Part shown: positions 6,322-41,182 of the stretch, piece by piece | How the letters are laid out: the number at the start of each line of letters is the position of its first letter | How positions within the stretch are numbered: the first letter of the stretch is position 1 | Program-made: the position numbers and the translations under genes | Notes under the pieces: model-generated | What the model was told of the DNA's origin: nothing | Database searches by the model: none | What the model saw: only the letters and a program-made list of their open reading frames with translations | From: an uncultured Desulfurococcales archaeon | GTDB lineage: Archaea > Thermoproteota > Thermoprotei_A > EX4484-217-1 | NCBI GenBank assembly: GCA_964406965.1 | Contig: CAYOTT010000005.1 | Location: 54,878 to 118,877, forward strand | DNA length: 64,000 bases | Direction: 5' to 3'

Positions 6322-8736
6322 TTACTCTTTTTCTTTCTCCGTTTGAGATAGGAAATCAAGTAGTGATGTTGTCTTCTTATTGCTTCTTTTATCACTGACT
6401 AACATCTTTACCTCAGGCTTGAACTGTTCTTTAACATGCCTTGTTGAAGCTTCAATACTCATTTTATAAATACTTCTACTTATATTTCTGAAAGCACTCA
6501 TCACTTTTCCAACATAATTTAAATCGATGTTTTCATAGTACACCCTTGTTCTCGTTGCTTCGGAGTCTAATTCAAGTCTTATTATACTAAGTTTTTCTTC
6601 GCCTGAAACATCATAAAATGATCTATCATGTGTAACAATAATTACCTGTTTCGGCCCTCCCGGGCTAAAAAGAACTCTTCTTAGTAACTCTACTCTTTCA
6701 GGAGAGAAACCGTATGTTGGCTCATCAAGTATCAATAAGCCTTCTCTAAGTTGGGGAATCATGCTTCTAGCTACCCTATTTAAAGCAAGTCTATAGGCTA
6801 AAGAAATACTTGTAAGTTGCCCCCCGCTTGGCGTGTCTATAGTAACTAAAGAACCATCTACTTTAGCTTTAAATTCAAGCTTGAAGTCCGGTGAGACTTC
6901 TACGTCTATGTTTTCATATCCCATCATTAGAGTTTTGAATATTCTTAGAAATTCTTCTTTAAAAGCAATATAAGCTTTGGATTTAACATATCTTTCAACT
7001 TCCCTTATTATGGCCAATACGTTTTTATCTAGAAATTCAAGATAAAATCTGTTCTTGTTTATTTCCTCCCTTATTTTCTTAAGTTCCTCTTTAACTCTAC
7101 TTATTTCTCTTAATTTTTCCTCATAACTTCCGATTTCTCCTTGTAGTCTCCCTTTTTCCTCATTAATTCTTTCTTTTTCTTTCAATATATTTTCTAAATC
7201 CCTTTTAGCAACGCTTATTTCTTCATTAACTTTTTCAAGTTCCTTAGTTACTTTAGTTATTTTTTTAAGTTCGCTTTTTAACTTGCTTATACGGGACTCT
7301 ATTTTAGCTACGTCTTTAGCGACTTCGAGGAGACTTCTTAGTTTAGCTTTTCTTTCAAGGAGGTTCTTTAGCTTCTCATTGGTTTTTCTTTCTTCAGCTG
7401 AGAGATCGTTAAATTCTTTTTCAAGAATGCTCCTTTCCCTTTTCATTTTCTCTATGTTAGTCTCTACTGTAGCAAGTTTCTTAAGGACCTCTTCCTTTTC
7501 AGCTAAGAGTTTATCAATGTCCTTGCTAATTCTTTCCTTAAGATCTTTAGCATGTGCGTGAGGTACTGGCTGTAAGCATAATGGGCATATTCCTTTACCT
7601 TCAAGATTCCTTATTTCTTCTAATCTCCTCTTAAGCTCCCCTATTTTACCGTCTATTTCAGCTACTTTAGAATGTAAAGCTTTGCTTTCACTTGTTTTTG
7701 ATTCAAGAATATTTTCTAGCTCTTTTTTACTCTTACTTACTGCCTCCCTTCCACTGCTTATTTTCCTTAATTTGTCCTCTATTTTCCTAATTTCGTTCTC
7801 TAATACTGAAAGTTCATTTTCTAGCTCTCCTATACTCTTATCTCCAAGATCTTGCATTTTCGTTTTCTTTTCATTTTCTAGTTCCTCAAGTTCTCCTCTT
7901 AAGACTTCAGCTTTTCCTGCTTTTTCCCTTAACTTCTTCTCTTTCTCCTCAAGTTCTCTTAGTTTTTCTTTTAACTTTTCTTCAGCTTCTTTTAATTTCT
8001 TAGCTTCTTTCTCAAGTTTTTCTAGTTTTTCTTTTGCTCCTCTTAACCTTTCCTTAACTATGGTTTCATCAACTATTTTCTCTCTTAACTCGCTTTCCCG
8101 CTTCTCCAGCTCTTTCCTAAGTTTACGGCGAGCAAGTGCTTTTACATAATCTATTCTCTCCTTAGCATAACTGTATTTTACGAGATTTAGAACCCTATTT
8201 ACTATTTCCGATCTCTCTTCCTCGCTCACATTAAGTATTGAGTGTATTCCAAATTGGGGAACGTAAATTGCTGAAGCAAAAACCTTACTTCTAGCCCGTG
8301 TTTTCTCTTCAGGTATTCCAAGGAGCTCCAATATGTAGCTTCTCATTTCAGAAGCTGTAAGTCTCCTAAATTTTGTTGAACCACCCTTCTCTACTACTAG
8401 AACCCATCCCCCCTTATCACTTACCGTTTTCCCAGATTCAGCTATTTCCCTGTGAACTATTATGTCTCTTCCTTCGCTTCTAATCCATAATTTAATGAAT
8501 CCTCTACTTTCACCTCTCCTTAGAAGATCTCTAGCAGTTGGATTAGCGAATCTTGAGAGAGGATCCGTTGGCGAACCTGGAACGTTTCCGAAAATAGCAA
8601 ACCCTATTGCGCTTAAAATACTTGTTTTTCCCGAACCTACGTCGCCGTAAATCACTGTTATTCCTTCTTCGGGAAACACTACTATTTCATCCTTATAGGA
8701 TCTAATGTTATGTAGCCAAATAGCCTTGATAATCAT
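6322..8736 (-). CDS. rad50: DNA double-strand break repair ATPase Rad50
   Basis: Walker A GDVGSGKTSILSAIGFAIFG, long K/E-rich coiled coil with a CPLC zinc hook (GKGICPLCLQP), signature PSGGQLTSISLAYRLAL, Walker B/D-loop LLILDEPTYGFS, His-switch VTHD. Confidence 0.9.
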   Translation of the reverse strand: MIIKAIWLHNIRSYKDEIVVFPEEGITVIYGDVGSGKTSILSAIGFAIFGNVPGSPTDPLSRFANPTARDLLRRGESRGFIKLWIRSEGRDIIVHREIAESGKTVSDKGGWVLVVEKGGSTKFRRLTASEMRSYILELLGIPEEKTRARSKVFASAIYVPQFGIHSILNVSEEERSEIVNRVLNLVKYSYAKERIDYVKALARRKLRKELEKRESELREKIVDETIVKERLRGAKEKLEKLEKEAKKLKEAEEKLKEKLRELEEKEKKLREKAGKAEVLRGELEELENEKKTKMQDLGDKSIGELENELSVLENEIRKIEDKLRKISSGREAVSKSKKELENILESKTSESKALHSKVAEIDGKIGELKRRLEEIRNLEGKGICPLCLQPVPHAHAKDLKERISKDIDKLLAEKEEVLKKLATVETNIEKMKRERSILEKEFNDLSAEERKTNEKLKNLLERKAKLRSLLEVAKDVAKIESRISKLKSELKKITKVTKELEKVNEEISVAKRDLENILKEKERINEEKGRLQGEIGSYEEKLREISRVKEELKKIREEINKNRFYLEFLDKNVLAIIREVERYVKSKAYIAFKEEFLRIFKTLMMGYENIDVEVSPDFKLEFKAKVDGSLVTIDTPSGGQLTSISLAYRLALNRVARSMIPQLREGLLILDEPTYGFSPERVELLRRVLFSPGGPKQVIIVTHDRSFYDVSGEEKLSIIRLELDSEATRTRVYYENIDLNYVGKVMSAFRNISRSIYKMSIEASTRHVKEQFKPEVKMLVSDKRSNKKTTSLLDFLSQTEKEKE

Positions 8737-8743
8737 CGCTTAC

Positions 8744-10714
8744 TTAAACCTCTGAGACAATTTTAGCTAAATCCTCTAATTTCTCTACTTCCCGCCTACT
8801 TTCCACTGCGATTTCAAACCATCCCTTAAAGTAAGCTGGTATGGGGTCTCTAACTCTAACATCTGGTGTGTAAATGTATCCTTCTCTATCGTTTAGTAAG
8901 GGTATTTCTGATGAGGGAACACCTATTGATGAGAAATATTCTATGTCACTCCTATACTTTGTTCTTAAAACTATAAGGGTGTTCATGTTTGCTAAAAGCT
9001 GTTTTTCGATAATTGTAGCTAGCTGGGTTATTGCTATAAGCCCTATTCTAAACTTTCTTCCTTCACGAGCTATTCTAGCAAAAGCATTTCTAGGGCTCCT
9101 AACTTTTTCAGGTGAAAGATAAAGGGGTGCTTCTTCAGAAACTATTGCTACAACGTTTTTCCTGCTTAGTTCCCTAGGGTCTAATCCTATTCTACCACTT
9201 AGAAGTCTCCTAACAACATTGAGCACTACAGCATCAGCTTGGGCTGAAGGTGCAGAGGAAACATCAAGTATTACAATGTTTCCCTCTTCAGTTTTCTTAA
9301 TTATTGAATCAATACTTAAACCTCTTTCGATAACTGATAATTCATCAGAAACACTAATCCTATACCACTTATAATTTGTCAAGTTCTGTTTAACTCTTAA
9401 AACAGGGCTTTTAGCTATTTCCTCAAGAAGCCTACGTAGAAAACCTGGTTTCTTAAAAACATCGCTTAATTTAAAAATGCTTTTATCGTCAGAATAGACT
9501 GTTATAACTCCTCCGCTTTTGGAAACGCTTTTTGGCTTAATGTTTAAGAGAGCTAATAGGCGTGTTCTCCAAACCCTAAGTTTCTGAATATACATTCCCT
9601 GTTGAACAAACTCCCTATAAACACCCTTCTTCTCTTTTTCTCCAACACCTTCGCTATTACACATGTTATCAACTACAGCTATGAATAGCGGAATTAAATG
9701 ACCGCTTAGTACTCCTTCTCTACTTCTAAACATTTCTTTCCAAGCATCAGATAGATTAGATGCTTCAACTATTGCTTCAAGAGTTTCAAGAATCATCTCT
9801 AATGTAGCTGCTTCCTCATCAGATACTTCAAGAGCCATTGAAACATCATTTACCGTTAAGCTTCCAATGTTTATTGCTGATTCCCTTATTTCCACATTAC
9901 CATATATTTGTGGTTCTCTTTCCGTAAAAGAGAGCTTATATACGTGAATTCTTTCCTTCATTACGTCTTCAGAATTATTGCTTAAAATAGCTTTAGAAAG
10001 CTTGTTAAGGAAAAATTCTTCCCTACCGCTTGAATACTTACTATATTCTCCATGCCTATCTATTATGAGCCAGCTTATTGGGGATTTCCCGTGAATAGCC
10101 CAGTCTAGAATTATACCCATAATTCCAGTTGTTTTTCCAGCACCCGTTTGTCCAGAAATGAGAATGTGTTTTGGAATTAAAGATTCTATATCAACCTTTA
10201 TTTCTGCTTTATCAAAATATTTTAGAGATTTCTCGCTCTCCGTTGATGCTGAACCACTTCTTAAAATGGCTATTGGCACTGTTTTTTCTAAATATTCTTG
10301 GGCAGGAATACCTAAACTAAACATGTACATTATTTTCTCAGACTCTTCGTCGCCTCTTTCAAGTCTATAAACTTCAGTATTAAGCGGCGGAGGTATTGCA
10401 GGTCTTGAAACATAGATTCTACCTCCTTCTTCGGTAATTAAGAACATAGGTGATGATATAATGGTTCTTTCCTTTCCTGCCTCAATAAGTGCTCCACTAG
10501 GTTCAACTTTCCTAGGTAGAAGACCTAAGGTTTTATTAGCTCCTGCTGGAAGCTTATTTAAAACATCGTCCACGTGAAGTAATAGAATTTTACTTAACCC
10601 CTTAAGTTTAACGTAAAGAATATCTCCTATGCTTATTCCTAAACCACTTTGATAACCTGCAATCAATACTTTATCTTTAGAAGACTCATATATCCATCCA
10701 ACAAATTTACCCAT
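8744..10714 (-). CDS. herA: HerA DNA helicase (FtsK/HerA-type ATPase)
   Basis: Walker A ILISGQTGAGKTTG, Walker B region in LIIDRHGEYS/VAIVSEEAP, 656 aa. Sits between the nurA and rad50 genes. Confidence 0.85.
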   Translation of the reverse strand: MGKFVGWIYESSKDKVLIAGYQSGLGISIGDILYVKLKGLSKILLLHVDDVLNKLPAGANKTLGLLPRKVEPSGALIEAGKERTIISSPMFLITEEGGRIYVSRPAIPPPLNTEVYRLERGDEESEKIMYMFSLGIPAQEYLEKTVPIAILRSGSASTESEKSLKYFDKAEIKVDIESLIPKHILISGQTGAGKTTGIMGIILDWAIHGKSPISWLIIDRHGEYSKYSSGREEFFLNKLSKAILSNNSEDVMKERIHVYKLSFTEREPQIYGNVEIRESAINIGSLTVNDVSMALEVSDEEAATLEMILETLEAIVEASNLSDAWKEMFRSREGVLSGHLIPLFIAVVDNMCNSEGVGEKEKKGVYREFVQQGMYIQKLRVWRTRLLALLNIKPKSVSKSGGVITVYSDDKSIFKLSDVFKKPGFLRRLLEEIAKSPVLRVKQNLTNYKWYRISVSDELSVIERGLSIDSIIKKTEEGNIVILDVSSAPSAQADAVVLNVVRRLLSGRIGLDPRELSRKNVVAIVSEEAPLYLSPEKVRSPRNAFARIAREGRKFRIGLIAITQLATIIEKQLLANMNTLIVLRTKYRSDIEYFSSIGVPSSEIPLLNDREGYIYTPDVRVRDPIPAYFKGWFEIAVESRREVEKLEDLAKIVSEV

Positions 10715-10716
10715 AA

Positions 10717-12060
10717 TTACTCACCATAACCATATCTTAACCTCATACTTCCACTTATCATTTGAAGGAGTGTTTTAAGCATTGAGAGATTGTTTCCAGC
10801 AGATTTTAAAGCAGCAACTTCCATGTATGCTATAATTGACTTCCTATGTTCACTACTTATTCTAACATGTTCATCAACTTCCATAAGCCCCATGGGAGGC
10901 CTTCCCGTGAGAGGACTTTTAATGTTAAATATTTTTAAAATACCCTCCTCAACTTTAGTGTTTACCTTTAAGATGTTTTCAGGGAATATTCTTAAAACTC
11001 TTCTACCTTCCTCTTTAACATAATATATTGTTGGTTTCTCTGAGTACACATCCAATACCATAACATGGTTTCCATCCATTGTTAAAGGAAACCTAAGTAC
11101 CCAGACATTGTTTTGAGGAAACACTCTAAGACTAAACATTTTAACAATGCTTTCAATAACTTCCCTTGGCATTTCACCTTTATACTCAGCTTCTTCAAAC
11201 ATCATTTTCAACATGTTCAATTCTTTATCATCAATTATCGTGTAAAGTTCATACTTACCTTCCTTAATGAATTCTCCGAAAAGATCCATTGCTCTAGAGA
11301 CTGTAGGGAATGCTGTAGTTTTCGATATGCCATAGACTCCTTCAAGACATTCTCTGATGACATTTGATTTGTTAAGTCTTGTAAGGATAGATAAAATGTC
11401 TATTCCATCTATTTTGTAACTTTCCCTAGCTTTTTTAGGTCTAAGCCATCTAACAAGGGTGCCATCGATAACTACTTTATCTAATTTTGCCTCCTTTAAT
11501 ATTTTAAGTCCATAAGCTAATTCTAAAAGACTTTCAATGTATTTTGAAAGCTTACGGTATAATCGGGGCTTCTTAATTTCTACTGTTAAACCTAAAGTTT
11601 CAAGAATTCCCGTTATTTCCTTAGAAATTTTCTCCGCATCTTTAGGTGATTCGAAGAGGAGTGATTTTTTCTCGGGACACCTAATTTCCACTTCAAAAAA
11701 GTACTTCATGGACCCATTAATCATTTTTCTTCTCTTAGTCACAGTTAAAACGACTCTTTCTATAGGTGGATATTGTTTTAAACCTTCAATATTGCTTATT
11801 AAGCTAAGCTCTCCTGAAGGCTCACGAATTAAAGCACCAAGCTGAATGTACATGAGTGCTGCAATTGATAAATCTAAAGGATATATTCCAGCATCTACGA
11901 AACCTATTCTTGATGGAAAAGTTTTTTCAAGAACCTTTACCTTGTAGTATTTTTCAAAAGTCTTCCTTATGAGAATAGTTATTGGGTCTTCAGATACTTC
12001 GCTTATTTGCTTAGAGATTCTACTTAGCAAATCACCTAAACTATCAATTAATGAGCTCAT
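10717..12060 (-). CDS. nurA: NurA 5'-3' nuclease
   Basis: 447 aa with the N-terminal GFVDAG motif (cf. IDGS of NurA) and later acidic motifs. Operon position between mre11 and herA with 4-nt and 2-nt junctions. Confidence 0.6.
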   Translation of the reverse strand: MSSLIDSLGDLLSRISKQISEVSEDPITILIRKTFEKYYKVKVLEKTFPSRIGFVDAGIYPLDLSIAALMYIQLGALIREPSGELSLISNIEGLKQYPPIERVVLTVTKRRKMINGSMKYFFEVEIRCPEKKSLLFESPKDAEKISKEITGILETLGLTVEIKKPRLYRKLSKYIESLLELAYGLKILKEAKLDKVVIDGTLVRWLRPKKARESYKIDGIDILSILTRLNKSNVIRECLEGVYGISKTTAFPTVSRAMDLFGEFIKEGKYELYTIIDDKELNMLKMMFEEAEYKGEMPREVIESIVKMFSLRVFPQNNVWVLRFPLTMDGNHVMVLDVYSEKPTIYYVKEEGRRVLRIFPENILKVNTKVEEGILKIFNIKSPLTGRPPMGLMEVDEHVRISSEHRKSIIAYMEVAALKSAGNNLSMLKTLLQMISGSMRLRYGYGE

Positions 12061-13322
12061 TTCTTAAGCTCCCCATATATTTGCTCTAAAATTTTAAATG
12101 CCTCATCAGCTACTTCCTCGTTAATTTCCGTTTTCCTCATACCTTCGCTATATTCTCTACCTAATGTTGAAATTAGGTTCAAAATTATTTCTGGTGAAAG
12201 CTTTAATCCGAATTTCTTAAGTGCTTGCTCAATGGCTTCCTTCTCCAACTCTTCAATATTTGATAGGTCGGACCTAAATTCCTCGAGAAATGTTATGTAT
12301 TCTTCTGCAGATTCGCTTCTAACGATATGTACCCAAGCATTCAAGCTTCTAGCAACATCATTGATCATTTTTCTTACTCTACTATATTTTTCAATGCTAA
12401 CTTTACCCGTGTAAACTATTATGCAGCGATATTTTTCATTCATATCTCTTATTTTCCTTTTAACCTCGTCAGCTACATTTTCTAAACCATAGGTTTCTAC
12501 TACTTCTACATCTACCCCAAAATTATTTGTTAAGGCCTTTATTGAGGCAGCATTTCTCCCTAAATTCACTAGTAATACTCTTCTATTGGTTCTTAGCTTC
12601 TTCTTTAAAATATAAGTCTCATATATGTCATTAGCATCTCTTCCTATAGGCGATCCTGGGTAAGCTACGTTGCCTTCAAAAAATTCGCTATAGGGTATTG
12701 GGAAGTGTATGTGTCCTAATGCTAAATATTTGAAGTGTTTATGAATTGAAGCATAGGCTTCTTCAGAAAGTTTAATCATACTATATTTTGGGCTTATTTT
12801 TGAAATATCTATGCCTGAATAAATGTAAAGACCTGTATGTGCTATGAGAATATTGTCCTTGTTTTCATCGTAATCTTCATAAACCACTCTGCGGCGCTCA
12901 AGATATTCTACTTCTCTCTCCCCTCTCAAACCAGGTAATCCATAGAAAACTACTCCATCGACTTCTAAGGGTTTTAAATAAAGTTTGTAATTTTTCTCCT
13001 CATGTTTTGTTAAATGCACTAAACCTACTTCCCCTAAGATAGAGAGAACACCATGCCCCCTAGCTGTTAAGTCATGAGAACCAGGAGTAACTATGAATCT
13101 TAGCCCCTCTCGAACTCCTTTCTTAATTATTCTAACAACGTTTAATGTTGTTTCATGCCCTAATCTAGGTGTTTCAAATAAATCGCCAGCTACAATAATG
13201 TTCTTTACGTTTTCTGAAAGTGCTAATTCAACTATTTTCTCTAACGACTCCAAATTAGCTTTTCTAAGTACTGTGTGTGGAAATGCGCCAATATGAATAT
13301 CAGCTGTGTGAATAAAGTCCAA
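12057..13322 (-). CDS. mre11: Mre11 DNA repair nuclease (calcineurin-like phosphoesterase)
   Basis: N-terminus MDFIHTADIHIG (phosphoesterase motif I), GDLFE (motif II), GSHD, GHIH (motif V); 421 aa. Confidence 0.85.
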   Translation of the reverse strand: MDFIHTADIHIGAFPHTVLRKANLESLEKIVELALSENVKNIIVAGDLFETPRLGHETTLNVVRIIKKGVREGLRFIVTPGSHDLTARGHGVLSILGEVGLVHLTKHEEKNYKLYLKPLEVDGVVFYGLPGLRGEREVEYLERRRVVYEDYDENKDNILIAHTGLYIYSGIDISKISPKYSMIKLSEEAYASIHKHFKYLALGHIHFPIPYSEFFEGNVAYPGSPIGRDANDIYETYILKKKLRTNRRVLLVNLGRNAASIKALTNNFGVDVEVVETYGLENVADEVKRKIRDMNEKYRCIIVYTGKVSIEKYSRVRKMINDVARSLNAWVHIVRSESAEEYITFLEEFRSDLSNIEELEKEAIEQALKKFGLKLSPEIILNLISTLGREYSEGMRKTEINEEVADEAFKILEQIYGELKK

Positions 13323-23676: not shown

Positions 23677-25470
23677 TCACTTTTCCACAGTCTTAAATGG
23701 ACATATTCTAGCATAAAAGCAGTATTTACAATTGTGAACTATACCAGCTGGTGTTAAGTAATTTTCTATATTTTCAACTTCAATATTATAAACCTCTCCG
23801 CGATATGAATTCGGAAGTATCCTCTTAATCCTAACCCATACTCCTCCCTTAATAAACCACGCTTGCGGATTTCTCTTCCTATATGTTGTCCATCTAACGT
23901 GAAATATGGGGTGTTTACCCCAGCCAGGTTGTCTTTGGGAGCTTTTTAGCGTAGGCAGTATTTTTTGCCTTAGTAGCATTATGACAAGCTGGTAAGCGAG
24001 CTTAGGGCTTGTAGTAGTATAATCAAACATTCCGTCCTTATAGACGTGGCCGTCGCCAGCTACCATCCCTTCTACTATTGTTCGTTGAGATTCAGGGGGT
24101 AAGTATAGGATTTTTTCTCTAAAGTGTTTCCTAGGAGCATATCTTCCCGTTTTGGGGTCTTTCTCCCATTCGATGAAATTATCAGCTAATTTACGCCATT
24201 TCACACCTAAGTTTATAACGTATTCATCTCCATGGGGCGGTGGGAGCTTGTAGAGATGAGATGAGTATGAAATACCATGTTGTGTTGCTATATCTTCAAC
24301 TCTCTTTACAATATTTTCCTCATGTGTACCCAGTGTAAGCACTATAGAAAATTTACCTCTCGGGAAGCCTTCGGCAACAGTAAGTCCAAGTAGCCATAAT
24401 AAGTTTTCTGTTAGACCCAAATCAAGAGGTCTATACTTAACCTCACTGGGATATGGTATAAATATCCATGGTTGTGCTTTGTACTCATCATTTATGTCTC
24501 TTTGCGCTTCACGTTCCATAATTTCGTAAATTTCCTTAACCGTTAACCATTGTGGCTCTGTAAAGATACGGCATCGTGTCCTTGACGTTATTTGAACATA
24601 ATACCCTCTCTGCTTATATGAATTAACTTTTTCTATATTTCCCCACTTGGAGAATCTAACGAAAATTGGATGATTCTCTGTAATCACTATGTGATTAAGA
24701 CCTGCAGGCTCTATGGTGAAGCATTGTTCATTCTTATGTATTTGTCTTCGAATAACTTTTGTTACTATTGCAACTCTATACTTGCCCGTTATTTTGTCCA
24801 TGCCGATGATTTTGTCTCCTTCTTTAATAAGCCTTATCGTTTTCATACCATCCGGAGTAAAGATAAGTGTGTTTGGGTGAAGGCATTCCCAACTATATCT
24901 TGGATGCTTTATGTTTTCTATAGTTTCCTTTACTAGTTTCTCAAGGTCTATTGGTGTTTTTTCAATGCTAAATTCAGCTATCCTATCAGGTGTTATGTAT
25001 ATTAGTATTCCTTTTTCTCTATTTAGAATGTTAAGATAGATCTGTAGCTGCATTAAGTGGTGGTCGTGAGGTATTCCTAAGTCGCTTCTTGCCGTTTTTA
25101 TTTCAACAACATAGTTTTCATTTAGGGCATCAACTCTTCCCTTGATCTTAACTTCTCTGTTATCTATAGATATCTCTTTTTCAAACTCTACTTCCACTTG
25201 AAAACCTTCTTCCTTAAGAAAACCTTCAATACCTATGTGCACCATGTCACCTAGTATGTGAGCGGGTTCAAATTTGAACATTAATTCGGGATATCTTATT
25301 CTGAACTCCCTTTTTTGACTGCATGAAACCATATCTGTAACGTAAACTATGTTAGGGTTTGTTGCATCCTTAAAATGTTCTCTGTAGTCACTTAAAACTC
25401 TTCGATAAAGTTTCTCCATAACTATGTTTGATGCTTTAAACTTCTCTGTTGAATTCAATTTACAATACAC
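23677..25470 (-). CDS. Cas4-family (DUF83/RecB-like) PD-(D/E)xK nuclease with 4Fe-4S cysteines, interrupted by an intein
   Basis: Exteins (aa 1-195 plus the last 17 aa) contain the N-terminal Cys (MVSCSQKREF), nuclease motifs GRVDALNENYVVEIKTA (D...ExK) and HHLMQLQIYL (QxxxY). After splicing, the C-terminal motif WE-CKYCFYARIC (Cx2Cx5C) is reconstituted. Confidence 0.65.
   Translation of the reverse strand: MYCKLNSTEKFKASNIVMEKLYRRVLSDYREHFKDATNPNIVYVTDMVSCSQKREFRIRYPELMFKFEPAHILGDMVHIGIEGFLKEEGFQVEVEFEKEISIDNREVKIKGRVDALNENYVVEIKTARSDLGIPHDHHLMQLQIYLNILNREKGILIYITPDRIAEFSIEKTPIDLEKLVKETIENIKHPRYSWECLHPNTLIFTPDGMKTIRLIKEGDKIIGMDKITGKYRVAIVTKVIRRQIHKNEQCFTIEPAGLNHIVITENHPIFVRFSKWGNIEKVNSYKQRGYYVQITSRTRCRIFTEPQWLTVKEIYEIMEREAQRDINDEYKAQPWIFIPYPSEVKYRPLDLGLTENLLWLLGLTVAEGFPRGKFSIVLTLGTHEENIVKRVEDIATQHGISYSSHLYKLPPPHGDEYVINLGVKWRKLADNFIEWEKDPKTGRYAPRKHFREKILYLPPESQRTIVEGMVAGDGHVYKDGMFDYTTTSPKLAYQLVIMLLRQKILPTLKSSQRQPGWGKHPIFHVRWTTYRKRNPQAWFIKGGVWVRIKRILPNSYRGEVYNIEVENIENYLTPAGIVHNCKYCFYARICPFKTVEK
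23731..24885 (-). mobile_element. intein (about 385 aa) with LAGLIDADG homing-endonuclease domain
   Basis: Begins CLHPNTLIFTPDG (block A) and has TENHPIFV (block B). Two LAGLIDADG motifs LLWLLGLTVAEGF and IVEGMVAGDGHV. Ends VYNIEVENIENYLTPAGIVHN, followed by +1 Cys (blocks F/G). Flanking sequence is contiguous Cas4 extein. Confidence 0.85.
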
Positions 25471-25670: not shown

Positions 25671-26851
25671 ATGAGGAGATTTCAAACTGAAGCTATCCAT
25701 GGACATGTATTTTATGATGAAAAATATGGAGCTTTTATCACACCAATATATCAAAGTGTTATTTATGAGCAATTCGATAGGAGAACAGGCAAGTTAAGAT
25801 TAACTGATAGAGGATTTGAGCTAAAGTATTCACGAGAGGAAAACCCAACCGTTAGGGTACTTGAAAGAGTTTTAGCTAGGCTTGAAAAAACATATGATTC
25901 CATAGCGTTCGATAGTGGTATGGCGTCTATTTCCTCAACACTTTTCTCCCTCATACATTATGGAAGCGTTATTCTTGTGCCTTATGAAGTTTATGGAACA
26001 ACATTGCATCTCATAGATCATATGGGTAGATTTGGTGTTAAGGTAGTTAAGACTCATCCTTCAACAGAAGCCATAATTGAGGATGCCAATATTAACGAAA
26101 ACATAAATGTTGTTTTCATAGAAACAATAACTAATCCTACATTAAAAGTATTAGATGTTGAGCAAATAGCTAAAGTAACTAGAGAGGCTGAAGCAAAACT
26201 CATTGTTGACAACACATTCGCATCCTCTGTAATATTTAACCCCATAAACGCTGGAGCACACGTAGTCGTTCATAGTGCAACTAAGTATTTAGCAGGACAT
26301 AACGACGTATTAGGCGGTTTTTCAGCAACAGATGATGTGGAGTTAATTAAGAATATATGGGATTGGCGTAGAAAGCTTGGCTCAATAATTCAGCCCTTAG
26401 AAGCTTATCTAATACTTAGAGGAATTAAAACGCTTGAAATAAGGTTTAAAAAACATAGTGAAAACGCATTAGCCATTGCCGAGTTTCTTCAGGAGCATCC
26501 TAAAGTTGTTGATGTATTATATCCCGGATTAAAAGATAGCCCATACTATAGTTTAGCTTGCTGAATGTTTAAGAAAAACTTTTCGGAGGAGTTGTTTCAT
26601 TTAGGGTTAAGGATAGCATGGTAGATGCGAAAAAGGTTCTTCTTTCAACGTCAATTATTAAGCCTTCTCCAAGTCTTGGTGGGGCAAAGTCGCTTATGAC
26701 CTTGCCGGCTTTAAGTTCAGCTAAATATATTCCGAAAGAATATAGGGAACGTGCAGGTATCTATGATAATCTCCTAAGACTTTCCGTAGGGTTAGAAGAT
26801 GTTAACGACATTATTGAAGATTTAGATAAGGCACTGGCAAACTTAAAGTGA
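25671..26851 (+). pseudogene. cystathionine gamma-synthase/beta-lyase family (Cys/Met-metabolism PLP enzyme), split into 297-aa and 77-aa ORFs
   Basis: The N-part ends ...YPGLKDSPYYSLAC* at 26564. The C-part (26618..26851) is MVDAKKVLLSTSIIKPSPSLGGAKSLMTL...RLSVGLEDVNDIIEDLDKALANLK, a typical C-terminus for this family. Between 26560 and 26590 there are stops in all three frames (TGA, TAG, TAA), and FGGVVSFRVKDS is readable just upstream of the second ATG. Confidence 0.7.
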
Positions 26852-38818: not shown

Positions 38819-41182
38819 CTATATGTTGCATGTTTCACATCCACCAGCATAATCTTCGGCTACGGCATTGTATTCTTTACTTCCAATTCTAAGTTTTAAT
38901 GGTATATTTCTTGATATTTTTATGGGTTTAGGTTTAAGTTTTAATACCTTCTCCTTAAGACCGATATGTATTACTTGTTCCTTCTTAGACTTGTCCCTAT
39001 AGACAGTTATTCCCTTGCATCCAAGTTTCCAAGATTCAAAAAATACTTCTTCAACGTCTATGGGTGTTGCTTCATGCCTTAAATTTACGGTTTTAGAAAC
39101 TGCATTATCAACCCATCTTTGAAACACTGCTTGCATTCTAACATGGTCTATTGGTTTAATGTCATGTGCTACTTTAAATATTCTCCTGAGTTCTTCAGGA
39201 ACTCGGTTTATTGTTGAAAGTGTGCCTTTTTCAGCAATTTCCCAAAGCTTATCCTCTTGTAAAAGACCTCTCTTCAATAGTTCACGTATTAACAGTTTAT
39301 TTATTTCTAAAAATCTACCAATACTTATCTGCCTTATAAAGACGGCAGCAAATAAAGGCTCTATACCTGATGACGTATTAGCAATAATACTTATACTTCC
39401 CGTTGGAGCTATCGTAGTTACTGTAGCGTTTCTTAAACCATACTTCTTAATATCTTCTCTAACCTTGTCCCAGTCTATTGGTGGCCTTTCTGAAACAAGT
39501 TTTCTTACTCTTTCCGAAACCTTAGAGAGATCAACTATTTTTTCAAGAGGAACTTGCGGTTCAAAGTTTAATTTTCCTTTAACAAAAATGCTTTCCTTAA
39601 AAGCTGGGAAGCTTCCTCTCTCCTTAGCTAACTCTACACTTGCCAACTTAGCATTGTACTCTATCCATTCCATGACTTTATCAGCTATGAAAAACGCGTC
39701 TGGTGTGTCGTATGGTATTTTTAGTTTTATTAGCATGTGTGCCCATCCCATTACTCCTAAGCCTATTTTCCTAGTTTTCTTAGTAGCTTCCTCAATCCTA
39801 AAATCAGGATACCTATTAGCATCAATAACGTCATCAAGAAACCTTACCGCTAATCTTACAGCTCTTCCAAGATCCTCCCAGTCTATGTGTGGCTGGTTGT
39901 TTTCTGTTTTTACGAATTTTTCTAGGTTTATTGATCCTAAGTTGCATGATTCCCAAGGTAAAGCAGGAACCTCACCACAAGGATTAGTAGCATTAATCTT
40001 ACCTAGTTTAGGCGTCGGATTACGCTTATTTATAGTGTCTATAAATACTGCGCCAGGATCCCCTGATTTCCAAGCACAATAAATTATTTTCTCCAAAATT
40101 TCTTTAGCGTTAACCCATTTTACATGTGCTCCTCTTTTTTCACATTTCTCAACAATATCGTAAATGTTTTCTGAAAGTGCATCTTTTATTTCAGGACATT
40201 CTTTGGGGTTTACAAGCGGCCACTTTTCACCCTTTAATGAAGCTTCAATGAATTTATCGTAAAGCGCTACCGAAATATTGAAGTTTCTTAGAACTTCTTC
40301 ACCACATTTAGACATTATGAATTCCATTATGTCAGGGTGCCAAACATGCATTATTCCCATGTTAGCTCCTCTACGCTTACCTCCCTCCTTAATCACTTCG
40401 GTGGTCATATCATATATTTTCATGAAGCTTATGGGGCCTGAAGAAACACCTCCTGTTGACTCTATAAAGTCTCCTTTCGGCCTTAATTCTGAAAAGTCTG
40501 CTCCAACTCCTCCACCGCTTTTCTGAATTAGCGCTGAAATTCTTAAGGAATCAAATATTCCATTTAAATCATCAGGTATGTGGATTACGAAACATGCTGA
40601 AAGCTGTCCTAATTTTGTCCCTGCATTCATTAATGTAGGGGAGTTAGGTAAGAACTTTAAATCAGCCATGAGCTTGAAGAATTTTTGAGAAAGCCTATTT
40701 ACTTCTCTATTGGATAATCCGTATTTTTTCTCAACAGATGCTATTGAGGAAGCTACCCTCCTAAACATTTCCTCAGGTGTTTCAATAATCTTTCCTGTGC
40801 GGGAATCTTTAAGTAAGTACCTTGCTTCTAAGAGTTTTATAGCGTTAAAGCTAAGCTTTTTATCAACATCACTTATTTTTGAAGGGTCCTTGCCACAATT
40901 CTTATAAATCCTTGCTAAAGCATAGCATTTAGCGGCTTCTAACCATACAGGATTATTTATTGCCTTCTGAACTAGAATAAGCTCTACAGCATCAGCTATT
41001 TCTTGAGAAGAATACTTTTTCAAACCCCTAGCTTCAAGAGTTTCAAGAACTTCTGAAACAACCTTTCCAGCTTCTTTAATATTTATATTAGCGCATTTAA
41101 GAGCCTTAACAATGGATTCCTCCAGTTTTTCTAGGGAGAAGTATTCTTCAACACCATTTCTCTTAATAACCTTTAGCCTCAT
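38819..41182 (-). CDS. nrdJ: adenosylcobalamin-dependent ribonucleoside-diphosphate reductase (class II RNR) with N-terminal ATP-cone
   Basis: ATP-cone N-terminus MRLKVIKRNGVEEYFSLEKL, catalytic core with NPCGE active-site Cys loop and a C-terminal Cys pair; 787 aa, no intein. Confidence 0.85.
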   Translation of the reverse strand: MRLKVIKRNGVEEYFSLEKLEESIVKALKCANINIKEAGKVVSEVLETLEARGLKKYSSQEIADAVELILVQKAINNPVWLEAAKCYALARIYKNCGKDPSKISDVDKKLSFNAIKLLEARYLLKDSRTGKIIETPEEMFRRVASSIASVEKKYGLSNREVNRLSQKFFKLMADLKFLPNSPTLMNAGTKLGQLSACFVIHIPDDLNGIFDSLRISALIQKSGGGVGADFSELRPKGDFIESTGGVSSGPISFMKIYDMTTEVIKEGGKRRGANMGIMHVWHPDIMEFIMSKCGEEVLRNFNISVALYDKFIEASLKGEKWPLVNPKECPEIKDALSENIYDIVEKCEKRGAHVKWVNAKEILEKIIYCAWKSGDPGAVFIDTINKRNPTPKLGKINATNPCGEVPALPWESCNLGSINLEKFVKTENNQPHIDWEDLGRAVRLAVRFLDDVIDANRYPDFRIEEATKKTRKIGLGVMGWAHMLIKLKIPYDTPDAFFIADKVMEWIEYNAKLASVELAKERGSFPAFKESIFVKGKLNFEPQVPLEKIVDLSKVSERVRKLVSERPPIDWDKVREDIKKYGLRNATVTTIAPTGSISIIANTSSGIEPLFAAVFIRQISIGRFLEINKLLIRELLKRGLLQEDKLWEIAEKGTLSTINRVPEELRRIFKVAHDIKPIDHVRMQAVFQRWVDNAVSKTVNLRHEATPIDVEEVFFESWKLGCKGITVYRDKSKKEQVIHIGLKEKVLKLKPKPIKISRNIPLKLRIGSKEYNAVAEDYAGGCETCNI

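Follow-up and report, generated by a model that had tools for sequence, protein, structure and literature searches.

The stretch of DNA analysed here (the window) comprises 64,000 nucleotides from an uncultured Desulfurococcales archaeon (assembly GCA_964406965.1, contig CAYOTT010000005.1, positions 54,878 to 118,877 of the forward strand), and its reverse strand carries a gene for a Cas4-family nuclease that is interrupted by an intein. In the predicted precursor, the N-extein has 195 aa, the intein 385 aa and the C-extein 17 aa, and the spliced product would have 212 aa. The GTG start of the open reading frame (ORF) is plausible, as the protein upstream of the first internal ATG is conserved in the closest homologue. 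An earlier note on this DNA, made from the sequence alone, had placed a LAGLIDADG intein directly before the first cysteine of a Cx2Cx5C motif, such that the +1 splicing nucleophile would also be a ligand of an iron-sulfur (Fe-S) cluster. Profiles and alignments agree with this placement, and the ORF, the extein and intein boundaries and every motif quoted in that note are present. The features of the gene, in the direction of its transcription, are as follows.

23677..25470, (-) strand: complete precursor, a solo-Cas4 interrupted by an intein; 597 codons plus stop, GTG start.
24886..25470, (-) strand: N-extein, aa 1-195, RecB-type PD-(D/E)xK nuclease core, recognised from TIGR00372, the 4IC1 structure and invariant alignment columns.
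25321-25323, (-) strand: codon of Cys50, the N-terminal cluster ligand.
25126-25140, (-) strand: RecB motif D, GRVD114A.
25096-25104, (-) strand: RecB motif ExK, E123-I-K125; GRVD114A and E123-I-K125 correspond to DALNENYVVEIK in the earlier note.
25036-25050, (-) strand: QxxxY motif, Q141xxxY145.
24886..25065, (-) strand: putative co-conversion tract, covering the final 180 nt of the N-extein and continuing into the C-extein (23677-23730).
23731..24885, (-) strand: class-1 intein, aa 196-580, 385 aa, 1155 nt; HINT splicing domain with an inserted LAGLIDADG homing endonuclease.
24847..24885, (-) strand: intein block A, CLHPNTLIFTPDG, starting CLHPNT; Cys196 is the predicted nucleophile of the N-S acyl shift.
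24658..24702, (-) strand: intein block B, GLNHIVIT264ENH267PIFV, with the TxxH motif.
24364..24402, (-) strand: LAGLIDADG motif 1, LLWLLGLTVAE367GF, acidic catalytic residue present.
24043..24078, (-) strand: LAGLIDADG motif 2, IVEGMVAGD473GHV, acidic catalytic residue present.
23731..23799, (-) strand: intein blocks F and G, GEVYNIEVENIENYLTPAGIVH579N580; terminal Asn580 is the predicted cyclising residue.
23677..23730, (-) strand: C-extein, CKYCFYARICPFKTVEK plus stop, beginning C581-KY-C-FYARI-C.

Three of the four Fe-S ligands of the nuclease lie in this short C-extein. They are Cys581, Cys584 and Cys590 of the precursor, which become Cys196, Cys199 and Cys205 of the spliced protein, and the first of them is also the +1 splicing nucleophile.

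The identity of the host gene was established from the spliced 212-aa extein, which matches TIGR00372 (cas4, an equivalog model) with 82 bits against a cutoff of 65, and PF12705 (PDDEXK_1) with 31.6 bits against a cutoff of 22. Thus, the Cas4/DUF83 assignment of the earlier note is borne out by the TIGR00372 profile; the PF01930 (Cas_Cas4) profile scores 22.6 bits, marginally under its cutoff of 22.7. The closest solved structure is that of SSO0001 from Saccharolobus solfataricus (4IC1; E=2e-47 over residues 17-208), and the alignment with it pairs the N-terminal cysteine and the C-terminal W-E-C-x-Y-C-x5-C, matching all four cysteines. In an extein alignment of 27 homologues, the residues D114, E123, K125, Q141, Y145, C50, W194, E195, C196, Y198, C199 and C205 (numbered as in the spliced protein) are invariant, and the intein sits precisely between Glu195 and Cys196 of the W-E-C-x-Y-C-x5-C motif. 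Furthermore, an AlphaFold model of the precursor has a predicted local distance difference test score (pLDDT) of about 90 or higher for N-extein residues 10-190. Homology and conserved residues therefore identify the host gene as an orthologue of SSO0001, belonging to the SSO0001-type solo-Cas4 clade. SSO0001 itself, a Mg-dependent 5'->3' exonuclease on single-stranded DNA, has a [4Fe-4S] cluster and about 4 Fe per monomer; it is not encoded in the vicinity of CRISPR loci, and each of its Cys->Ala variants is insoluble (PMC3466216).

The insert (aa 196-580) was also recognised by intein profiles. It matches PF14890 (Intein_splicing) with 42.8 bits against a cutoff of 35.8, the match extending over profile positions 3-155 and intein residues 9-385 with the endonuclease as an insertion, and it exceeds the cutoffs of PF14528 (LAGLIDADG_3; 37.6 bits, cutoff 22.5) and TIGR01443 (intein_Cterm; 19.5 bits, cutoff 15.6). 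The TIGR01445 (intein_Nterm) profile scores 20.8 bits, below its cutoff of 24.5. All residues expected of class-1 splicing are present (Cys196, T264-E-N-H267 and H579-N580, followed by Cys581), as are the two LAGLIDADG motifs with their acidic residues E367 and D473. In an alignment of nine Cas4-like sequences with an intein at the same site, no variation occurs at Cys196, His267, V578, H579 or N580. The insert resembles solved inteins only marginally, with a weak match to PI-PkoII (PDB 2CW7; E=2e-4). Taken with the intein-free orthologues described below, whose colinearity is exact, the profile scores go far beyond what chance would produce, and we assign the insert to class-1 inteins that carry a homing-endonuclease domain.

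Across 25 close homologues of the intein, block A reads CLHP-[ND]-[TA]-L... and the splicing blocks A, B, F and G retain their catalytic residues, while the acidic residues of the LAGLIDADG motifs are lost sporadically. In motif 2, the aspartate is replaced by glycine in P0002 and by asparagine in P0071 and P0072; further D->N losses occur in P0082, P0083 and P0087, and some relatives have D->N at motif 1. Loss of acidic residues with retention of the splicing residues looks like endonuclease decay after fixation, and the residue pattern as a whole is what one would expect of a homing cycle in which an intein invades, becomes fixed and then loses its endonuclease. When the window's intein is compared with the one at locus L001, the ratio of nonsynonymous to synonymous substitution (dN/dS) is approximately 0.10 in both the HINT and the endonuclease parts, at a synonymous divergence (dS) of about 2.2, which is near saturation.

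These data also bear on the idea that the insertion is dead, in other words that the intein no longer splices, that cas4 is in effect a pseudogene and that the insert survives as a free-riding endonuclease ORF. Gene decay does occur in this genome, as the disrupted Cys_Met_Meta_PP gene next to cas4 (25671-26851) illustrates. Against a dead insertion, all splicing residues are conserved among lineages with inteins that are only 68-70% identical, the exteins keep all catalytic and cluster residues, and dN/dS is 0.06 for extein codons 2-135. Furthermore, the uninterrupted 597-codon frame is kept across at least three clusters (90% identity), which together have 36 members. We therefore consider it highly improbable that the insertion is dead. 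A protein identical to the window's precursor (P0001) is present in public metagenome-assembled genome (MAG) data, and the public records of the intein-bearing alleles carry the label 'hypothetical protein [Thermoprotei / Acidilobales archaeon]'.

When the spliced extein was used as query, 61 uninterrupted homologues were returned. The closest of these is P0006, an intein-free protein of 212 aa that is 87% identical and is encoded in the same neighbourhood in L004 (and also in L006); the nearest intein-free relative comes from an uncultured Desulfurococcales MAG. Excision of exactly 1155 nt makes the window's gene colinear with the L004 allele, the extein's own Cys+1 codon TGT being retained, and the intein-free junction in L004 reads ...CATCCAAGATGGTCATGGGAA|TGTAAGTACTGTTTCTACGC... 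The DNA junction is likewise exact in comparison with the intein-free locus L005. Hence, the intein-free alleles at the same site that the earlier note had suggested looking for do exist, in the syntenic L004/L006 and in L005, with an exact junction for L004 and L005.

A second intein-bearing lineage, P0002 and P0003 (66-68% overall identity), also has a syntenic intein-free relative, P0008 (L005). In their exteins, the window's protein and the intein-free P0006 are 87% identical, whereas the window's protein and the intein-bearing P0002/P0003 are only 62% identical; P0002/P0003 are in turn 80.5% identical to the intein-free P0008. The inteins themselves are 68-70% identical between the window and P0002/P0003. 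Judged by these identities, the distribution of the intein is patchy relative to the relatedness of the exteins. In addition, a scan of a genome collection with the extein alignment confirmed 131 relatives, all of them uninterrupted; the pattern used ([RK][WYF][SED]WECxYC) spans the junction and finds intein-free alleles only, and the figure is thus no count of intein-bearing species.

The DNA around the insertion site holds a record of how the intein may have arrived. Over more than 3 kb of flanking sequence, the window agrees with L004 at 90.4% of positions. The 180 nt immediately upstream of the insertion site reach only 67-77% and the C-extein 80%, and for the 240 nt around the site the value is 74% (-180..+59 versus the rest, Fisher p=2.4e-12). 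Silent changes follow the same course: dS is 0.42 in codons 2-135 and about 1.3 in codons 136-212, and codons for the same amino acid differ in 39% of cases within the tract against 18% outside it (p=0.003). Over residues 136-195, the window's protein and its sister are 64-70% identical, no closer than P0002/P0010 (72%). We read this trough as a co-conversion tract, in which a diverged donor that has not been sampled would have supplied the intein together with flanks of approximately 180 nt (5') and 50 nt (3'). The change is placed on the window's allele because, within the trough, P0006 keeps its affinity to P0007 (68%) while the window's allele loses it (58% to P0007), although the numbers are small (50 residues).

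The same comparison can be turned around. If the intein had been present in the ancestor of the clade and inherited vertically, P0006, P0007 and P0008 would have lost it by precise deletion or gene conversion, and the trough would represent a converted L004 allele. An intein identity of 68-70%, little above the extein identity of 62% between the window and P0002/P0003, is compatible with such co-divergence, and the L001/L005 pair taken up below, which lacks a trough, also speaks for it. The affinities within the trough, which put the change on the window's allele, argue against it. We consider ancient vertical inheritance unlikely, yet it is an alternative to be taken seriously.

The reading that we prefer is of a canonical class-1 intein with an apparently intact LAGLIDADG endonuclease, which as a selfish mobile element has entered solo-cas4 on the chromosome of an uncultured hot-vent archaeon of Desulfurococcales type (Thermoprotei), and we give this reading a probability of roughly 85%. 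Both marks of homing, a sporadic distribution and co-conversion of the flanks, were found, the latter as a trough in one of the two pairs examined. Several observations weigh against this reading. First, the other intein-bearing and intein-free pair, L001 and L005, has no trough at the site, and co-conversion is therefore supported for the window's lineage only. Second, the region evolves somewhat faster in general, as in the P0006-P0007 control, where identity drops from 76% to 68%, and the diverged tract is short. Third, block F has an asparagine (VYNIE) where many inteins have aspartate, a difference that we do not regard as disabling, and the intein part of the AlphaFold model has a pLDDT of 30-60, the alignment being shallow there. 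As to L001 and L005 themselves, the 5' two-thirds of cas4 are 70-78% identical and the downstream genes about 90%, which implies a recombination history differing from that of the window.

The Fe-S-cysteine site is occupied in other genes as well. A phmmer search of 1.84 billion cluster representatives, together with a junction-pattern scan of JGI metagenomes, identified further Cas4-like nucleases with a homologous intein at W-x | C...VHN | C-x-[YH]-C-x5-C, namely P0109 (a fragment), P0114, P0162, P0177, P0236, L093, L095, L096, L097, L100 and L101. The intein allele at this site is thus rare, but widespread and old. In a neighbour-joining tree of 39 related inteins, monophyly of those at the Cas4 site was recovered in 0 of 100 bootstraps and subgroups reached at most 50%, so that the tree does not discriminate between a single origin and several.

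Some of these relatives deserve separate description. The genes for P0114 (L086 5672-7408) and P0162 (L087 8001-10004) lie on contigs that consist almost wholly of small unidirectional ORFan genes, and L086 has, in addition, genes for a DNA methylase, for a resolvase of Hjc-like type and for a PHROG 'DNA repair exonuclease'. Both contigs probably stem from viruses of archaea or from other mobile elements, a hint that the intein may pass between viruses and hosts. Among IMG/VR viral contigs, neither the protein nor a degenerate DNA pattern of the junction gave a match. In 50,697 phage and virus records of GenBank, tblastn with the window's protein gave no intein-bearing relative, only intein-free Cas4 homologues of archaeal viruses (for example SMV4 and lipothrixviruses), and the corresponding search with P0177 returned unrelated inteins only. 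On L096 (788-2512), a Sulfolobales-like solo-Cas4, 50% identical to P0060, has a 337-aa intein at the same site, which is about 30% identical to the window's and has lost both LAGLIDADG acidic residues; its sample, Ga0180302, is numbered next to Ga0180301, the source of the window's intein-free sister contig. In P0144 (658 aa, metagenomic), the intein lies one residue downstream (WGC | C...VHN | SYC), with a serine at +1 and the first cluster cysteine in the N-extein; either the insertion site slid by one residue or the gene was invaded independently. Finally, P0143 (594 aa, metagenomic) has a related intein in a PAPS-reductase/ATP-pyrophosphatase-like protein, before Cys-x-x-Cys (…GHSGN | C…VHN | CMFCPY). 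The intein family may possibly move among unrelated hosts via similar |CxxC-coding targets.

The splicing and endonuclease activities of the window's intein are predictions from its residues, and the pathway that they suggest is the following. The gene would be translated as a 597-aa precursor, in which an N-S acyl shift at Cys196 would be followed by trans-thioesterification to Cys581, cyclisation of Asn580 and an S-N shift. Splicing would join Glu195 to Cys581 and so restore W-E-C-x-Y-C-x5-C, and in the mature Cas4 the N-terminal Cys50 and the three C-terminal cysteines would hold the nuclease's stabilising cluster. Intein-free cas4 alleles would be cut by the freed intein, or by the precursor, at a site of about 20-40 bp over the ...TGGGAA|TGTAARTAYTG... 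junction, and the intein would then spread by repair-mediated homing. The window's lineage would have obtained it by homing of this kind from the diverged donor proposed above, along with the approximately 180 nt upstream and 50 nt downstream that belong to the donor's extein.

What would this arrangement mean for the nuclease? It is plausible that cluster assembly, and hence the nuclease, depends on prior splicing, and the suggestion is reasonable because the Cys581 thiol would be needed for trans-thioesterification. In the HINT fold, the two splice junctions are adjacent, so that even the unspliced precursor might in principle assemble the four cysteines. If it does so, one would expect a bound cluster or metal to hinder splicing, and not the other way round. 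Extending this, splicing and cluster insertion might compete for the Cys581 thiol, with splicing in turn gating maturation of the holo-enzyme, making the intein an iron- or redox-responsive post-translational switch on an archaeal DNA-end-processing nuclease, or the site might serve as a landing pad for intein exchange between viruses and hosts; these are speculations to which we attach little credence.

A more specific proposal is that the intein has been domesticated as a conditional switch, with splicing gated by redox, iron or Fe-S status and active solo-Cas4 formed only under defined conditions. Conceivably, the precursor could hold a metal or cluster through Cys581, Cys584, Cys590 and Cys50, or a Cys581-Cys196 disulfide could form, and in either case trans-thioesterification would be blocked. 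The coincidence of +1 nucleophile and cluster ligand invites such a proposal, as do the occupation of the same site in many divergent Cas4-like genes and the precedents for splicing controlled by redox through catalytic and extein cysteines (PMC6195587) and by substrate or stress in hyperthermophile RadA (PMC5790916, PMC5238726). However, the distribution is patchy and the closest relatives are intein-free, the endonuclease is intact and under purifying selection, as for a mobile parasite, and the recombination signature is one of recent acquisition. Insertion at conserved catalytic sites is, moreover, a general rule for selfish inteins and needs no regulatory role. Patchiness, an intact endonuclease and marks of recent acquisition all lead us to favour a plain selfish element, and we regard domestication as quite improbable.

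The surroundings of the gene are those of a chromosomal housekeeping locus. The gene ttuA lies 8 nt downstream of cas4, and a pyridoxal-phosphate (PLP) enzyme gene and phoU lie upstream; this PhoU - PLP enzyme - cas4 - ttuA neighbourhood recurs in related MAG contigs, in all syntenic loci. No CRISPR array was found in the 64-kb window, and PADLOC scans of its 61 ORFs found no other cas gene among the best 25 of 46 matching families listed in a first scan, nor among the six families, all listed, of a second scan in which four SMC/HerA-type ORFs were left out. Because no array or cas gene was found and the neighbours are housekeeping genes in all syntenic loci, the window's Cas4 is a solo-Cas4 and not a CRISPR-associated Cas4. 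The description of the gene as an orphan Cas4 holds in so far as the window contains no cas gene or CRISPR array; as a peculiarity it does not, as the solo-Cas4 clade is common (PMC5704561, PMC3466216), being present in most archaea and inherited mainly vertically (PMC5704561). A functional link between cas4 and ttuA was considered and rejected, as the linkage occurs only within the immediate clade (6/87 loci).

The defence-library matches in the window (PADLOC) were to SMC/HerA-type ATPases, with one restriction-enzyme-like match and weak radical-SAM matches. Four co-directional genes at 6322-13322 (-) encode an 804-aa SMC/Rad50-like ATPase, a 656-aa HerA (DUF87) helicase, a 447-aa ORF without a Pfam match and a 421-aa Mre11-like metallophosphoesterase, and look like an archaeal Mre11-Rad50-HerA-(NurA) DNA-end-resection operon; this cluster explains the LmuB, HerA and JetC matches in the PADLOC scan. 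The Cys_Met_Meta_PP gene for the PLP enzyme (25671-26851, (+) strand), directly upstream of and divergent from cas4, is broken: an in-frame TGA, together with a frameshift of 1 nt within an A-run, leaves ORFs of 297 aa and 77 aa. Its sister orthologue (L004 8629-9804) is intact, with 391 aa, and the disruption may represent either a pseudogene or a homopolymer assembly error. A phmmer comparison against the six-frame ORFs of the window detected no second intein, and the ribonucleotide reductase gene at 38819-41182 (-) (787 aa, ATP-cone plus RNR large subunit), a classic intein host, is intein-free.

This work adds a host and a site to the intein catalogue, an archaeal chromosomal solo-Cas4 that is split exactly at an Fe-S ligand, and leaves knowledge of how inteins or Cas4 work unchanged. 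Under the 'hypothetical protein' label on the alleles, neither the Cas4 nor the intein is picked up by annotation pipelines. At about 90% identity, the window and its sister genome form a natural pair with and without the intein in which the putative co-conversion tract is visible, and homing in uncultured hyperthermophilic archaea could be tested on this pair. Furthermore, the use of one cysteine as both splicing nucleophile and cluster ligand raises a question: does Fe-S loading compete with protein splicing, or depend on it? The answer would matter to the dispute between a purely selfish view of inteins and one in which they are conditional regulators.

With regard to known systems, the window's extein is about 45% identical to SSO0001 and shares with the SSO0001/solo-Cas4 clade the same RecB motifs, the same Cys-x(n)-Cys-x2-Cys-x5-Cys ligands and a position away from CRISPR/cas genes; SSO0001 is intein-free, whereas the window's gene is intein-bearing. 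The phylogenomic study of Cas4 makes no mention of inteins (PMC5704561). The suggestion in the earlier note that no intein had been described in a Cas4-family nuclease is wrong, as such inteins are abundant in actinobacteriophages (PMC5050341; bioRxiv 10.1101/2025.01.02.630785). There, Cas4/RecB-like exonucleases are the second-largest class of intein hosts, with 40 inteins (Kelley et al., PMC5050341), and the C1 mycobacteriophage inteins occupy a single insertion point in the conserved PD-(D/E)XK motif (PMC5050341). A 2025 preprint reports 138 inteins in Cas4 exonucleases and describes class-3 Cas4 inteins at RecB motif III (E-F-K-T) (bioRxiv 10.1101/2025.01.02.630785). For archaea, the main text of a large intein survey mentions no intein in Cas4, and our literature search, the coverage of which was incomplete, found no description of an intein in an archaeal Cas4/RecB-like nuclease or at an Fe-S ligand.

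The actinobacteriophage inteins resemble the window's in bearing LAGLIDADG endonucleases, in residing in a CRISPR-unlinked PD-(D/E)xK exonuclease of the Cas4 family, in using a conserved functional motif as their site, and in their patchy distribution and recent horizontal spread. They differ in that the phage inteins of the preprint are of class 3 and lie at motif III, whereas the window's intein is of the class-1 type (Cys1 ... HN/Cys+1) and lies in front of the first Fe-S cysteine of the C-terminal set, about 70 residues downstream of E123-x-K125; neither its splicing type nor its site is that of the class-3 phage Cas4 inteins. Furthermore, the window's intein resides in an archaeal chromosome and the phage inteins in bacterial viruses. 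Conditional inteins, such as M. smegmatis DnaBi1 (PMC6195587) and Pyrococcus RadA (PMC5790916, PMC5238726), likewise have catalytic cysteines near reactive cysteines and a host that is a DNA-metabolism enzyme of a (hyper)thermophile, but their partner cysteines are not Fe-S ligands. Finally, the classical archaeal class-1 LAGLIDADG inteins (PI-PkoII, and those of PolB, RNR and RFC) share its block A-H architecture, with Cys1, TxxH, two LAGLIDADG motifs, HN and Cys+1, and differ in host protein and insertion site. Thus, the element is of a known kind, a canonical homing intein, in a host and at a site for which we found no earlier description, and is not a new kind of system.

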